NCBI GenBank assembly: GCA_028286605.1
Contig: JAQBRE010000002.1
Span: 399,687-463,686 of the forward strand
Direction: 5' to 3'
Source: Parcubacteria group bacterium
GTDB lineage: Bacteria > Patescibacteriota > Minisyncoccia > Phycocordibacterales > Phycocordibacteraceae
DNA: 64,000 nucleotides
The notes under the pieces: model-generated
Databases searched by the model: none
What the model saw: the letters and a program-made list of their open reading frames with translations, nothing else
What the model was told of the DNA's origin: nothing
Position numbers and translations under genes: made by a program
Shown: piece by piece, positions 33,045-61,286 of the stretch
Layout of the letters: the number at the start of each line of letters is the position of its first letter
Position numbering within the stretch: the stretch's first letter is position 1

Positions 33045-33053
33045 AATAGCGAT

Positions 33054-33767
33054 ATGAAGACGATTCGTTTCGATGCAGATACACGCGGAGGTGGCGATTA
33101 CGGCTGGCTGAATACGCGCTACAGTTTCAGCTTCGCGAACTGGATAGACAAGAACCGTATGGGCTTCGGCGCGCTTCGCGTCCTTAATGATGACACCATC
33201 GCGCCGGGCAAAGGCTTCGATCCGCACAGCCATGCAGACATGGAAATCATCACGCTCGTGATGAAAGGAGCGGTTGCGCATGAAGACAGTGGTGGCGGAA
33301 AGGGAGTAGTGGTTGCTGGCGAAGTGCAGGTGATGTCTGCAGGGACGGGTGTTACGCATGCCGAATTCAATGCATCCGAAACAGATCCACTCGAACTATT
33401 CCAGATTTGGATCATGCCGAAGACACTCGGCGGCGAACCGCGCTATGCGACTCGCTCATTTGAAGCGCTCGGTTCGATTCCAGGGATCACGCTGCTCGTT
33501 ACTCCGGAAAGCGAGACGGAAGGTGATGACCTTTTTATTCGCCAGGATGCCTATCTTTCATTCATCACGCTCGATGCGAGCGGCGAACAGATATATGAAT
33601 TGAAACAGGAAGGGAATGCCGTATATGTTTTCGTAATAGAAGGAACGCTCACGACGGCAGGCGAAACACTGAATGCACGCGATGCGCTTGGCGTGGTGGA
33701 AACGAATGAGATCGCGTTCGCGGCCTCCGGCCATGCCACTGCGCTTATCATCGAGGTTCCGGTCTAG
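33054..33767 (+). CDS. Pirin-family cupin protein (YhhW-like)
   Basis: GFDPHSHADMEIITLVMKGAVAHEDSGG...GEVQVMSAGTGVTHAEFN matches the pirin N-domain metal-binding motif (HPHRGFET...HxD...GDVQWMTAGxGIxHSE). Confidence 0.8.
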   Translation: MKTIRFDADTRGGGDYGWLNTRYSFSFANWIDKNRMGFGALRVLNDDTIAPGKGFDPHSHADMEIITLVMKGAVAHEDSGGGKGVVVAGEVQVMSAGTGVTHAEFNASETDPLELFQIWIMPKTLGGEPRYATRSFEALGSIPGITLLVTPESETEGDDLFIRQDAYLSFITLDASGEQIYELKQEGNAVYVFVIEGTLTTAGETLNARDALGVVETNEIAFAASGHATALIIEVPV

Positions 33768-33841
33768 TTCGATGCCTAGTCTGCCAACTTGCATTTAGTA
33801 TATGTGCGACTATAGTTCGAAAAGAGAAACGGAGGTGGAAC

Positions 33842-34138
33842 ATGGTTCTAGATCTTATAATGAAGCGCGGGTGGTGGCACTGGGAGAGAGATCGCAATGA
33901 TTCTTCGTACTGGTCTCTGGCCCGCAAAGACAATGTGTTCAATTTGAAACTTCCAAGCGAAGCTGTTCTGCAAAGGCTCTGGAGGGAATCAACCCCCAAC
34001 GCCGCATTCAGGCCTCTGCGTGTCCTGGCACGCCTGGACTGGGGTTGTATTGCCGCAACCCCAAAGTATATCCCCACATCAGTGCGGGTCCGATTCCTTG
34101 CGAAAGTCGCCAAGAATCGAGCAACTAGAGAGTCTTAA
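33842..34138 (+). CDS. Hypothetical basic protein (98 aa)
   Basis: RBS ggaggtgg. Trp/Arg-rich. No recognisable domain. Confidence 0.45.
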   Translation: MVLDLIMKRGWWHWERDRNDSSYWSLARKDNVFNLKLPSEAVLQRLWRESTPNAAFRPLRVLARLDWGCIAATPKYIPTSVRVRFLAKVAKNRATRES

Positions 34139-34140
34139 CA

Positions 34141-34174
34141 AGAGGCGTTCGTGAATTCACGAACGCCTCAAAGT
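34141..34174 (+). terminator. Perfect 14-bp-arm palindrome centred on GAATTC. Terminator of the 33842-34138 gene.
   Basis: gaggcgttcgtgaattcacgaacgcctc followed by aaagtttt. Confidence 0.6.
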
Positions 34175-34204
34175 TTTACTAAAGTTCCAACGTCGACCTA
34201 GACT

Positions 34205-34360
34205 GTCAGCGTGCTACGATGCGCGGGTCGTAGCGGTGGAAATCGGAACACCCTCGTGACTAGCCGACAACCGAAACGGAACATCCCAGTGTGGCCTCTG
34301 TGGCTCTGGTTGGATAGGGTCAGCTACGACAGCCGTCTGCAGCGATGCAGGCGGCTTTTC
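34205..34360 (+). ncRNA. Candidate structured non-coding RNA or leader (class unknown) ending in an intrinsic terminator
   Basis: 155-nt ORF-free segment. 5' hairpin gctacga-tgcgcgg-tcgtagc. The downstream gctacgac (34323-34330) can pair with the same gtcgtagc, giving alternative pairing. Terminator gccgtctgca-GCGA-tgcaggcggc + ttttccttt at 34332-34364. A possible -10 tagact lies at 34203-34208. Confidence 0.35.
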
Positions 34361-34380
34361 CTTTGGGGTATACTCACCCA

Positions 34381-34980
34381 ATGAAACTAGACCGGCTCAT
34401 GGCTTTCGTGGAGATGCAGCAGACATTCCAGAAAGTGGATCGCATTATACGTGTGCCAGGTATGCCCGATCGCTGGGAGAACGATGTGGAGCATAGCTAC
34501 AACCTCGCGATGCTCGGCTGGTATATCGTCACGAGTGAGAAGCTCGATTTGAATGCGGACCTCGTCATCAAGTACGGCATGATTCATGACCTCGTTGAAG
34601 TGTATGCAGGCGACACCTATATTTATGAAAAGGATGCTTCACATCTTGCCAGCAAGCACGAGCGCGAAGCTGCCGCAGCGGTACAGCTAGCTGAAACCTT
34701 TCCTGAGTTCCCGGACCTACACGAATTAATAGAGACGTATGAAAAGCGCGAAGACGCAGAGAGCAGATTCGTGTATGCACTTGATAAGCTGCAGCCGATC
34801 CTGCATATCTATATGGATGATGGTGCGACATGGAAGGAGATGGGAATAACGCTTGCGATGGCTATAGAAAACAAGACACCGAAAATCGCCGTGTCGCCCG
34901 AAGTGCAGGTGTACTATGACGAACTCATGCTCATCCTGCACGAGCGTCAGGAAGAATTGTTCGGTTCAGTGACGGTCTAG
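34381..34980 (+). CDS. HD-domain phosphohydrolase (YfbR-like 5'-deoxynucleotidase family)
   Basis: NDVEHSYNLAMLGWYI...IKYGMIHDLVEVYAGDT (the H...HD...D metal ligands of the HD_3/YfbR family). ggggTATACT sits 6 nt upstream of the ATG. Confidence 0.75.
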   Translation: MKLDRLMAFVEMQQTFQKVDRIIRVPGMPDRWENDVEHSYNLAMLGWYIVTSEKLDLNADLVIKYGMIHDLVEVYAGDTYIYEKDASHLASKHEREAAAAVQLAETFPEFPDLHELIETYEKREDAESRFVYALDKLQPILHIYMDDGATWKEMGITLAMAIENKTPKIAVSPEVQVYYDELMLILHERQEELFGSVTV

Positions 34981-35774: not shown

Positions 35775-36037
35775 AGTATAGCGCGTATCGGTTTCTCACG
35801 CTGTCTTCATCGTGGTGCGCGTATCATGCGCGAGTATTCAATTACTTCGCACGTAATCAAAAATTTCTATGCTTAAGAATATGAAATACGATCTGATGCT
35901 CGCGGTTCCTGCACTTATGCTTGCAAGCGTGCTCGGCGCATTCGCGATCGCGCACTCGTAACAAATTAATCTGATACGATAGAGGGGCGACGGACGAAGG
36001 ACGGCGTAAGATACGCCGTCCTTTTACGTCATATCCT

Positions 36038-42497: not shown

Positions 42498-42531
42498 CAA
42501 GGGCGCGCCGGATGGCGCGCCCTTTTTCTTA
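42498..42531 (+). terminator. Rho-independent terminator after the purC-like gene
   Basis: gggcgcgcc-ggat-ggcgcgccc + tttttctt. Confidence 0.7.
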
Positions 42532-42580
42532 TCCTCCCGTGTACGTATGTATATGCGCATCATCCTTTATACTGAACGTA

Positions 42581-45343
42581 ATGGCACTTGAAGGACCAGC
42601 GCGACCGATAACGTCGCCGGAAGAAGAACTCGCGTACCTGCGTGCGCAGGTACAGGCGAAAGAGCTTGAGCTTTCGGAGTTGCGCGTGGAAAAGCCGCGC
42701 GAGACGGTCGCGCACGAGCGCATCGTGGATCATCGCAGCACGGAAGCTGCGCAGGTACTCGATCCACGCTATCAGATACAGCCGGCAGAGGCAGAAAGCC
42801 TTGCGCTTAACCTTGAACCGCAGAGTGATGACGAAACGATGCAGGAGCTTCGCCGCATTATCGAGACGAAGGGTATCCATAATGCGTTCAGCGTGCTGGA
42901 AAAGCTCAAGAATCCGCACCTTGAGGATGATTTCCACCGATTCCTCGTGCAGTATCTGATTGCGGGTATGCCGATACAAGGCATGAACGAGAAGCAGCCT
43001 GAATGGAAGGGTCTGCACATGACGCTGTATGAGATCTCGCTTCCGGAAGCGAATACTGATGAAGAATCTCGCCGTAAAACGTTGAAAGAGCTTATCTCTT
43101 CGATGGAGCAGTTCTATTCCGGCATGCTCGGCACAGAACATGCCACGACGGGCGAGCCTGCGCACTTCACCCTTGAGCTCGCGGTGCCAGTGAACAAGGC
43201 GCACCTGATGTTCTATGCAGCGATACCGAATTCGAAATGCGACTTGTTCGAGAAGCAGTTGCTCGCCATATTCCCGAATGCGCATATCGCACCGCAGCCG
43301 AACGATTACAACGTCTTCGTTGATGGCGGCGAATCGTTCGGTTCCGTTGCTGCGCTTGGTCGCCCGGCGATGCTCGCGCTCAAGGATTACGGTGATTTCG
43401 ATTATGACCCTATCAACTCGATACTGAATGCCTTCGCGAAGATTGCGCCAGAGAATGAAGGTGCTTCATTTCAGATTACGATCGCGCCGCAAGGGGAGCG
43501 TTTCGTGAAGCACTATCGCAAGGTATTGAATGCGCTTCGCACCGGGCAGGAACGACAGAAGGCATTCAATCTTCCTGAAACCGCATTTGGTGAAGTGGCA
43601 CGTGATATCACGAGCACATTGTTCGGTGGCAGTTCAAGTAAGACGAAGGAGGACGAAGAGAAAGAACGCGCACGCCAGACCGAAGCGAATAAATCTGATA
43701 TCGAGCACGTAGAGCGAAAGCTCGCATCACAGATAGTCGCGACCAATATGCGTCTTGTGGTTTCTTCCAAGGACCCAGGCCGTGCAGAACAGATACTTGG
43801 CGAGCTTGAGTCTGCATTCCATCAGTTCGAGAATCCGACCGGCAACCGTATAGAGTGGCGGCATGTATCGCGCGGCACGCTGCGAACTCTTTTCCATGAC
43901 TTCACCTTCCGTACGTTCGAGAAGGCGACTGAAGTCGCACTTTCTCTCCGTGAACTCACAGCGATATTCCACTTCCCGCCGAACGGCATCGCCTCTTCGC
44001 CGCACCTCAAGCAGTCGAGGTTCACTGCAGCGGCAGCTCCTTTGGAGCTGCCGCACGACGGCATCCAGCTCGGCACCAACGAGTTCCGGGGTCAAAAGAC
44101 TGATGTATTTCTTTCACCTGAAGACCGTCTTCGTCACCTGTATGTGATCGGGCAGACCGGTACCGGTAAGACATCGTTCATGAAAACTCTGATTGATCAG
44201 GATATCAAAGCAGGTAATGGGGTCTGCTTCATCGACCCGCACGGTAACGACATCCTTGATGTGCTGGCAAGCGTTCCTCCGGAACGCTATGAAGACGTCA
44301 TCTACTTCGATCCGGCATACATAGATCGACCATTCGGTCTCAATCTTCTTGAATACGATCCCGCATTCCCTGAACAGAAGACGTTCATCGTGAACGAGCT
44401 GCTCGCTATATTCCGTCGCTTGTATGGCGATGTGCCTGAATCGATGGGTCCTGCCTTCGAGCAGTACTTCCGTAACGCAACATTGCTCGTGATGGAAGAT
44501 CCAGAATCCGGTTCAACGCTTATGGACATCGGCCGCGTGCTTTCGAACAAAGCATTCCGAGACCTGAAGCTTTCTAAGAGCAACAACCCAATCGTGAATC
44601 AGTTCTGGAATGAGATAGCAACGCAGGCAGACGGCGAAGCGTCACTTGCGAACATCGTCCCATATATCACGAACAAGTTCGATGATTTTACTTCGAACGA
44701 TTTCATGCGTCCTATCATTGGTCAGCAGGAATCATCCTTCAAATTCCGCGACATCATGGATAAGCGAAAGATCCTGCTCGTTAATCTTTCGAAAGGACGA
44801 CTCGGTGAACGTAATGCGAACCTGCTCGGGCTCATTATGGTGGGCAAGATATTCATGGCAGCGCTCTCACGTGCAGATGATCCGCGTGGCGTCTTCCCGC
44901 CGTTCTACCTCTATATAGACGAGTTCCAGAACATAACGACCGACTCCATTCCGAGCATCCTTTCAGAGGCTCGTAAATACAAGCTATCTCTTACGATCGC
45001 GCACCAGTTCCTTGCGCAGGTCGATGAGAAGATCCGTGACGCAGTCTTCGGCAACGTCGGCTCCATGAGCGTGTTCCGTGTTGGGCAGGAAGACGGCGAA
45101 GTGTTCGCGAAACAATTCGCACCGACATTCAGCGCGCCCGATTTCATCAACATCGAGAATTACAACGCATACGTGCGTATGCTCGCGCATGGCGTGCCGC
45201 AGAAGCCCTTCAACATTCAGACGCTTCCGCCGCCGCAAGGAAATCCGAATCAGATCGATGACTTGCGCGAACTTTCATACCTCACCTACGGTCGTGACCG
45301 TGCTACAGTTGAAGCATCTATCAGAGCGAGATATCTTTCGTAA
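42581..45343 (+). CDS. Large ATPase of the FtsK/HerA/VirB4/VirD4 (T4SS) superfamily with a ~480-aa N-terminal domain of unknown function
   Basis: C-terminal half: HLYVIGQTGTGKTSFMKTLI (Walker A), CFIDPHGND, ILLVNLSKG, YLYIDEFQN (Walker B) and ARKYKLSLTIAHQFLAQV (the R-K-x-G-x-L-x-TQ arginine-finger box typical of TraD/TrwB/VirB4/HerA). The N-terminal half has no TM helix and no recognisable motif. The ORF-track start at 42350 lies inside purC and is rejected. Confidence 0.75.
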   Translation: MALEGPARPITSPEEELAYLRAQVQAKELELSELRVEKPRETVAHERIVDHRSTEAAQVLDPRYQIQPAEAESLALNLEPQSDDETMQELRRIIETKGIHNAFSVLEKLKNPHLEDDFHRFLVQYLIAGMPIQGMNEKQPEWKGLHMTLYEISLPEANTDEESRRKTLKELISSMEQFYSGMLGTEHATTGEPAHFTLELAVPVNKAHLMFYAAIPNSKCDLFEKQLLAIFPNAHIAPQPNDYNVFVDGGESFGSVAALGRPAMLALKDYGDFDYDPINSILNAFAKIAPENEGASFQITIAPQGERFVKHYRKVLNALRTGQERQKAFNLPETAFGEVARDITSTLFGGSSSKTKEDEEKERARQTEANKSDIEHVERKLASQIVATNMRLVVSSKDPGRAEQILGELESAFHQFENPTGNRIEWRHVSRGTLRTLFHDFTFRTFEKATEVALSLRELTAIFHFPPNGIASSPHLKQSRFTAAAAPLELPHDGIQLGTNEFRGQKTDVFLSPEDRLRHLYVIGQTGTGKTSFMKTLIDQDIKAGNGVCFIDPHGNDILDVLASVPPERYEDVIYFDPAYIDRPFGLNLLEYDPAFPEQKTFIVNELLAIFRRLYGDVPESMGPAFEQYFRNATLLVMEDPESGSTLMDIGRVLSNKAFRDLKLSKSNNPIVNQFWNEIATQADGEASLANIVPYITNKFDDFTSNDFMRPIIGQQESSFKFRDIMDKRKILLVNLSKGRLGERNANLLGLIMVGKIFMAALSRADDPRGVFPPFYLYIDEFQNITTDSIPSILSEARKYKLSLTIAHQFLAQVDEKIRDAVFGNVGSMSVFRVGQEDGEVFAKQFAPTFSAPDFINIENYNAYVRMLAHGVPQKPFNIQTLPPPQGNPNQIDDLRELSYLTYGRDRATVEASIRARYLS

Positions 45344-59951: not shown

Positions 59952-60262
59952 TGACAATAGAACGTTAGTGGGGTATTTTAAAAACGGTTCGGACGTTCGG
60001 CGAGAAATTGCCGCTGGCCCTCCAGGGAGGGCGGACGCGCCTTCCGCTCAACGCAGCTCGATGCTGTATGATGATCTTTTCGCCATTCGGGGAATGCCAA
60101 TGACTTGGACTCAGGTCGAGGCGTAAGGGAAGAACCCCATTAGAACAATCGCACTCTCAGGGGAGAACGAACTTCCAATGGCACCCTTACGTCTAATCTT
60201 TTGAGGCAGGAGCGCTAATAAATACAGCGGGGGCGGTACGATTTCATTTATCGTGCCGCCCC
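59952..60262 (+). ncRNA. Candidate ~275-nt structured RNA or leader upstream of ddl, bounded by a sigma70-like promoter and a strong intrinsic terminator. Class unknown.
   Basis: ttgaca -17 nt- tatttt at 59952-59980. A 360-nt segment free of ORFs >=60 aa. Terminator cgggggcggtacgat-ttcattt-atcgtgccgccc + tttcctatttcc at 60228-60274. It contains a 21-codon uORF (60061-60126) that lacks an SD. Confidence 0.35.
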
Positions 60263-60302
60263 TTTCCTATTTCCATATTCTTGCCTGCTATACTCTTCAC
60301 AT

Positions 60303-61286
60303 ATGCGTGGCACCGTTGTTGGAGTATTGCGTGGCGGTCCGTCGCGCGAGCATGAGGTTTCGCTTGCGAGCGGGCATGCGATTATTGCGAACCTTCCGAA
60401 AGATCGCTTCACCGTTCGTGACATTTATATAGACAAGCAGGGAGCCTGGCACGAACGTGGCCGTCCTATCACGCCGGATCGCGCACTGCATTCCGTAGAT
60501 GTCGTCGTTATCGGTTTGCATGGCGAATACGGAGAAGACGGCGAGGTGCAGAAACTTTTGGAGAAATACGGTGTGCCATACACCGGCTCAGGTTCATTCG
60601 CTTCGTTCGTAGCGATGCATAAGGTGATGTCTAAGGAGAAGGCGAAAGATGCGGGCCTGCTCACTCCTGAGTATCGATACATCGAAGAGAGCACGAACAA
60701 CATCGAAATGGAAAAGATGCTGCGCGATGTGGTGCGAACCTTCCCGCAGCCCGTGGTGGTGAAGCCGACGCGCTGGGGCTCATCAGTGGGCGTTACGCTC
60801 ACCACGGGCTATGCACCGCTCCACACGGCTGTTACAGGCCTTCTTAGGCAAGGTTCCGGCGGTGTACTGGTGGAGGAATACATAAAAGGAACTGAGGCAA
60901 CCGCGGGCGTCGTGGAAGGGCTTCGAGGCGAAGCCCTGTATGCGCTTCCGCCCATCGAAATCCTCCCACCTGAATCAGACTTCTTCTCGTATGACGCCAA
61001 GTATTCGGGCTCCTCGAAAGAGATCGTCCCGGGCCGCTTCACGAAACAGGTGACGGATGAGCTGATGCGCCAGGCGCGCCTCATGCATGAGGCGCTCGAG
61101 CTGCGCCACTACTCACGCTCTGATTTCATCATCACGCCCAAAGGCATCTATTATCTGGAGACTAATTCGCTTCCGGGCCTCACCGGCGAATCGCTCCTGC
61201 CTAAGTCCCTGGCTGCGGTGGGCGTGTCCTTCGGGGAATTCTTATCCCATATAATTGACCTTGCACGGACAGGAAAGAAACGGTAA
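60303..61286 (+). CDS. ddl: D-alanine--D-alanine ligase
   Basis: VLRGGPSREHEVSLASG, VIGLHGEYGEDGEVQKLLE, the ATP-grasp motifs, and the C-terminal YLETNSLPGLT. Confidence 0.9.
   Translation: MRGTVVGVLRGGPSREHEVSLASGHAIIANLPKDRFTVRDIYIDKQGAWHERGRPITPDRALHSVDVVVIGLHGEYGEDGEVQKLLEKYGVPYTGSGSFASFVAMHKVMSKEKAKDAGLLTPEYRYIEESTNNIEMEKMLRDVVRTFPQPVVVKPTRWGSSVGVTLTTGYAPLHTAVTGLLRQGSGGVLVEEYIKGTEATAGVVEGLRGEALYALPPIEILPPESDFFSYDAKYSGSSKEIVPGRFTKQVTDELMRQARLMHEALELRHYSRSDFIITPKGIYYLETNSLPGLTGESLLPKSLAAVGVSFGEFLSHIIDLARTGKKR

Follow-up and report, generated by a model that had tools for sequence, protein, structure and literature searches.

Does the DNA in front of an HD-family gene in the metagenome-assembled genome of a Parcubacteria group bacterium encode an RNA device that controls the gene, or a set of ordinary and separate parts? 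In a window of 64,000 nucleotides, the whole stretch of DNA analysed here, the initial annotation had described positions 34175–34380 as a structured, ORF-free RNA element with mutually exclusive helices and a terminator, to be read as a riboswitch or attenuator or as an independent sRNA. The reading we favor, at a probability of roughly 60%, is that the interval holds three separate things and not one RNA device. An unconserved tail of a genome-specific insertion of ~600 bp, here called the body (34170–34330, plus strand), is followed by a terminator and then by the leaderless promoter of the HD gene, all of them ordinary. The body itself appears as lineage-specific, non-coding sequence that lacks significant structure.

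The downstream gene (34381–34980, plus strand) encodes an HD_3 / YfbR-like phosphohydrolase, matching Pfam HD_3 at 9.4e-29. As had been noticed earlier, a TATACT hexamer lies between the terminator and this gene, at 34369–34374 on the plus strand and ending exactly 6 nt 5′ of the ATG at 34381. The arrangement TATACT-N6-ATG is invariant in 10/10 genomes (the window and 9 distinct relatives), where the motif mostly reads GGTATACT with flanks that vary among genomes. The deposited HD protein (211 aa) begins at an upstream ATG, 34345, which falls inside the terminator hairpin. Nearly all of the listed HD homologues measure 193–204 aa and only a few are over-long calls; in one such case (L013, 2501–2590) a 229-aa call is over-extended like the deposited window protein and has the TATACT motif inside it. 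The orthologues examined start with MKL, MNL or MKF. Homologue lengths and the conserved −10 box thus place the start of the HD gene at 34381 (199 aa) rather than at 34345, and the deposited start is corrected accordingly.

The HD gene has a −10 hexamer close to its start codon, no Shine-Dalgarno (SD) sequence, and an arrangement kept among orthologues and recurring genome-wide. Together these features strongly support the earlier proposal that HD is transcribed from its own leaderless promoter with TATACT as the predicted −10 box, in which case the mRNA would start at or beside the ATG at 34381. Since this conserved promoter lies downstream of the terminator, HD expression would be independent of read-through from upstream. 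More distant HD loci were few, a search of genome contigs yielding only four, and two Saccharibacteria loci among them carry TATAAT 10 nt before the ATG.

The same geometry is common in the window. In about 22 of its 57 long ORFs, a TAnnnT hexamer ends 6–8 nt, mostly exactly 6 nt, before the ATG, and no SD sequence is present; the hexamer is often TATACT, TATAAT or TACAAT, and no −35 consensus is visible. Examples of such leaderless-type starts are found at 2932, 3729, 9711, 12099, 25535, 33054, 34381, 35768 (minus strand), 37625 and 60303, and leaderless mRNAs seem to dominate gene expression in this genome. Leaderless mRNAs are known from Deinococcus and Actinobacteria, and their promoters were reportedly mapped genome-wide in Mycobacterium tuberculosis by Cortes et al. 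in 2013. The starts described here resemble the M. tuberculosis type in having a −10 hexamer 6–8 nt before the ATG, no SD sequence and conservation across orthologues. They differ in belonging to a member of the Parcubacteria (CPR), in showing no −35 consensus and in being predicted rather than mapped. Literature searches for work on leaderless mRNAs or on riboswitches in CPR bacteria yielded no relevant paper.

The origin of the sequence upstream of HD was examined by comparison with relatives. Over 33700–34500 the window agrees in every base with an independent Logan assembly (L018), so its sequence is no assembly artefact. The comparison covered the HD loci of 9 distinct relatives (HD protein identity 70–81%). 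Most share with the window the order ABC-F ... HD, pseudouridine synthase, sigma factor, DUF5667, PIF1 helicase; in L013 and L014 the side upstream of HD has been rearranged. This neighborhood also contains a hydrophobic 30-aa ORF, MLKNMKYDLMLAVPALMLASVLGAFAIAHS (35869–35961, plus strand), which is conserved at 70–87% identity in 5 relatives, in every case with the pseudouridine synthase gene on one side and an ECF-type sigma factor gene on the other; it likely encodes a real small membrane protein.

A lack of the pairing pattern in relatives had been named beforehand as evidence against a structured element, and the element is absent from the HD loci of all 9. In these relatives HD follows the upstream gene directly or after a short spacer, with just 16–45 nt between the two genes in several. 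In L001, 26 nt separate the pirin stop codon from the HD ATG, and relative to this arrangement positions 33768–34363 of the window are extra sequence, corresponding to the ~600-bp insertion. Within it lie an orphan ORF of 98 aa (ORF98) with a promoter and SD site, a palindrome, the body and the terminator.

The ORF98 unit begins with a promoter-like TTGCAT-16 nt-TATAGT (33789–33816, plus strand) and an SD site GGAGGTGG (33831–33838, plus strand), both read from the sequence. L011 has TTGCAA-18-TATAAT in the matching place after the pirin stop codon. The strong GGAGG form of the SD site was flagged at only one other first start in the window (49091), most genes being leaderless. ORF98 (33842–34138, plus strand) has itself as its sole match among 5.8 billion proteins, and searches of Pfam, PHROGs, PADLOC and the PDB returned nothing for it. 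Its codon score of −0.09 lies below that of every native-gene segment, indicating non-native codon usage, and its single-sequence AlphaFold2 model is of low confidence (pLDDT 48).

Directly after the ORF98 stop codon stands a 28-bp perfect palindrome or hairpin, GAGGCGTTCGTGAATTCACGAACGCCTC (34142–34169). Its T-tracts are weak in both directions, neither strand reaching 5 T's within 8 nt. The hairpin could serve as a binding site, stabilize an RNA or weakly terminate transcription in both orientations. Because the hairpin has no proper U-tract, we infer that transcription reads through it. The body would then be an unconserved, non-coding part of the insertion, most likely carried along passively in the ORF98 mRNA as its 3′ UTR, and probably has no function of its own.

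A perfect 11-nt inverted repeat, CCGGTCTAGTT at 33759–33769 and AACTAGACCGG at 34385–34395, brackets the whole insertion and was considered as a pair of mobile-element ends. Its arms lie in coding sequence, one in the region of the pirin stop codon and the other in HD codons 2–5, and neither L001 nor L011 retains them. For these reasons the candidate was rejected and the repeat is probably due to chance.

The space between the ABC-F and HD genes (33045–34380 in the window) is a gene-turnover hotspot when compared with the corresponding slot in L001, L002, L006, L008, L011, L012 and L016. It is empty in L008 and L012, contains only pirin in L001, pirin with an unrelated 90-aa gene (ORF90) in L011, pirin with ORF98 in the window, and other small genes in L002, L006 and L016. 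ORF90 is likewise an orphan, and the two orphans differ from the leaderless core genes in having canonical −35/−10 promoters together with SD sites. The slot thus presents itself as a hotspot in which small orphan genes come and go.

The ORF98 unit ends in a Rho-independent terminator (34331–34364, plus strand), a G+C-rich hairpin directly before a U-tract. Its 11-bp stem is closed by a GCGA loop, followed by a TTTTCCTTT tail, and its pair probabilities are 0.87–1.00. The hairpin, which occupies 34331–34356 and reads AGCCGTCTGCA-GCGA-TGCAGGCGGCT followed by TTTCCTTT, bears out the earlier description of a GNRA-loop terminator with a T-tract behind it. Under strict criteria (a stem of at least 9 bp, at least 5 G-C pairs and a T-rich tail), the window contains 13 distinct terminator-like sites against 0–4 raw hits per shuffle, a raw count in which some sites are listed more than once under several loop sizes. 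The terminator is therefore beyond chance, and 34331–34364 is a genuine intrinsic terminator. It shares the 11-bp G+C-rich stem, the GNRA tetraloop (GCGA) and the U-rich tail at the end of a unit with the typical form and differs from it in nothing essential, although its U-tract is interrupted (UUUUCCUUU). The design is common to 12 other strong sites in the window.

This terminator also has a homologue outside the genome. Together with the HD promoter (34331–34374) it aligns with positions 2176–2229 of L011 at z = 9.4, a score reached in 0/300 shuffles. The L011 terminator (2176–2201) ends ORF90, a different and unrelated gene with its own −35/−10 promoter and SD site, and lies just 5′ of the HD promoter. 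Only these two parts of the interval have a homologue among the relatives. The best reading is that the terminator is ordinary, insulating and inherited from the slot. It would stop transcription leaving the fast-evolving upstream gene slot, here occupied by the orphan ORF98 unit with its promoter at 33789–33816, and would shield the HD promoter downstream from that transcription. The same module of terminator, TATACT and ATG recurs in the window at 42499–42583 and 60229–60305.

Homologues of the body were sought in several ways. Smith-Waterman comparison with the slot of every relative gave nothing significant (p ≥ 0.1). An exact 22-mer of the element had 0 matches in genome contigs, an exact 21-mer 0 matches in metagenome contigs and an 18-mer 0 matches in viral contigs, and blastn of the element against phages and plasmids found no match. 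A degenerate hairpin pattern produced a single match in metagenome contigs, in the eukaryote-like contig L023, which we put down to chance. ORF98 and the body show scattered short similarities, but these are neither collinear nor significant and give no indication of an internal duplication.

The alternative helices that had suggested a switch were then considered for what they are and for what they could do. The 5′ hairpin GCTACGA/TCGTAGC exists, although at 34213–34234 (plus strand; arms 34213–34219 and 34228–34234, loop 34220–34227) and not at ~34209–34230 as first placed. The 8-bp alternative pairing is equally real, with GTCGTAGC (34227–34234) perfectly complementary to GCTACGAC (34323–34330). 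These two helices exclude each other, and neither has a base in common with the terminator hairpin at 34331–34356. The body from 34211 to 34330 folds at −39.6 kcal/mol with z = −0.24, and 70 of 200 shuffles were as stable or more so, as were 32% of 120-nt windows of this genome at the same GC. Extending the fold to 34211–34362 brings z to about −2 because the terminator is then included, and the minus strand across the element gives z = −0.75. The window offers 7 further instances of a 7-mer hairpin whose 5′ arm is repeated within 150 nt; two of them were examined, and both fall in long ORFs taken as genes. The alternative helices are no more than expected by chance.

Nor do they influence termination. 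The base pairs of the terminator have ensemble probabilities of 0.87–1.00, both for a transcript beginning at 34211 and for one beginning at the ORF98 stop codon. The energy was −58.7 kcal/mol with the 5′ hairpin forced and −61.6 kcal/mol with the long-range helix forced, and the terminator remained intact in both structures. The competing helices thus leave termination unaffected, and within the favored reading they would be chance pairings.

Control of HD by regulated termination at 34331–34356 would require that such pairings be coupled to the terminator. The arrangement does recall a terminating riboswitch platform, in that a multi-branch fold closed by a P1-like 8-bp helix lies directly beside the terminator, with a competing hairpin upstream. 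In contrast to such a platform, the switching helices and the terminator share no strand here, the terminator stem faces no competing alternative pairing, no conserved aptamer turned up in any collection searched, and the downstream gene would not be co-transcribed. The conserved −10 box of HD lies downstream of the terminator, leaving the element outside the HD 5′ UTR; all 9 orthologues are without the element upstream, and an HD message produced by read-through would have no SD site. Searching Rfam at the gathering threshold over the whole window returned 4 tRNAs only, and at E ≤ 10 on 33950–34550 just two junk matches, both outside the element, in agreement with the earlier failure to recognize an SRP, 6S, tmRNA or riboswitch consensus by eye. 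ARAGORN and Tandem Repeats Finder detected nothing. A leader-peptide attenuator finds no more footing: the element has no short ATG ORF with an SD site and no antiterminator pairing, and the only candidate leader ORF is 57 aa long, has a GTG start and extends across the terminator. We consider a riboswitch or attenuator extremely improbable, and a false candidate is thereby removed.

That 57-aa ORF bears on the claim that the element is ORF-free, which fails literally: a plus-strand ORF of 57 aa and a minus-strand ORF of 55 aa span the element, and neither looks coding. The plus-strand ORF runs from GTG 34211 to 34384, where its stop overlaps the HD ATG (ATGA), and a TAGACT hexamer ends exactly 6 nt before the GTG. 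This −10-N6-start geometry matches that of real genes here and would suit a leaderless gene for a small protein. Yet its codon score of −0.24 is like that of non-coding frames and below every real-gene segment, its sole match in a HMMER search of 1.84 billion representatives is a spurious tandem-repeat protein, and each of the 22 credible leaderless starts found in the window is an ATG, none a GTG. Furthermore, because the ORF runs through the terminator, terminated transcripts would have no stop codon. The minus-strand ORF had no homologue in a word-index search and shows no promoter hexamer upstream, and Pfam, PHROGs and PADLOC returned nothing for the element ORFs. A small-protein gene at this position is accordingly very improbable.

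The TAGACT hexamer (34199–34204, plus strand), read from the sequence, is also the one candidate −10 box from which an independent transcript might start; a consensus scan called no promoter there. It could start an RNA of ~150 nt near 34211, with the 5′ stem-loop at its head and its end at the terminator at 34331: a stand-alone, lineage-specific sRNA. Promoters in this genome appear to need only a −10 box of the loose TAnnnT class, which TAGACT fits, and a strong terminator closes the unit. By reading, the minus strand shows no TAnnnT hexamer in 34140–34380, so any such transcript would be plus-strand. The body further contains two copies of CGGAACAYCC (34244–34253 and 34277–34286), found nowhere else in the 64-kb window; they stand 33 nt apart within a direct repeat matching at 14/18 positions, and pure chance explains the pair only moderately well. 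Against this proposal, a lone TAnnnT hexamer is expected by our estimate roughly once per 64 nt by chance, and the fold is as stable as shuffled sequence (z = −0.24). The element is, in addition, absent from 9/9 distinct relatives and from all collections scanned. The terminator needs no sRNA to account for it, as L011 shows it to be inherited from the slot. A stand-alone sRNA therefore seems doubtful.

A broader version of this idea is that the body is a young, lineage-specific RNA of ~150 nt, stand-alone or derived from a 3′ UTR, that arose in the slot together with ORF98. The CGGAACAYCC copies could then serve to bind a protein or an RNA. Enterobacteria reportedly provide models in CpxQ and SroC, sRNAs embedded in or derived from 3′ UTRs; sRNAs of this type are conserved, with defined seed regions and chaperones. 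The segment between the ORF98 stop codon and the terminator could likewise yield an sRNA that shares the terminator of its mRNA, whereas the element here is not conserved. We regard this version as unlikely.

The rapid turnover of the slot among relatives suggests one further origin for the body, namely the decayed 3′ remnant of an earlier slot gene of which only the terminator is still intact. The homology of that terminator to the one ending ORF90 in L011 would fit, as would the open reading frames of ~55 codons that span the body on both strands. However, the body has no significant DNA or translated similarity to the slot genes of relatives, and neither of its ORFs has a protein homologue, which makes a gene remnant quite improbable.

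The favored reading, an unconserved insertion tail followed by an inherited terminator and the HD promoter, fits a wider pattern. Most expression in this genome appears to come from −10-only promoters and leaderless mRNAs, and its intrinsic terminators sit directly 5′ of the next promoter. Were the young-RNA version true, the body would exemplify de novo birth of an RNA and a gene in an ultra-small CPR genome. The patterns of promoters, terminators and slot described here should be useful for the annotation of CPR genomes.
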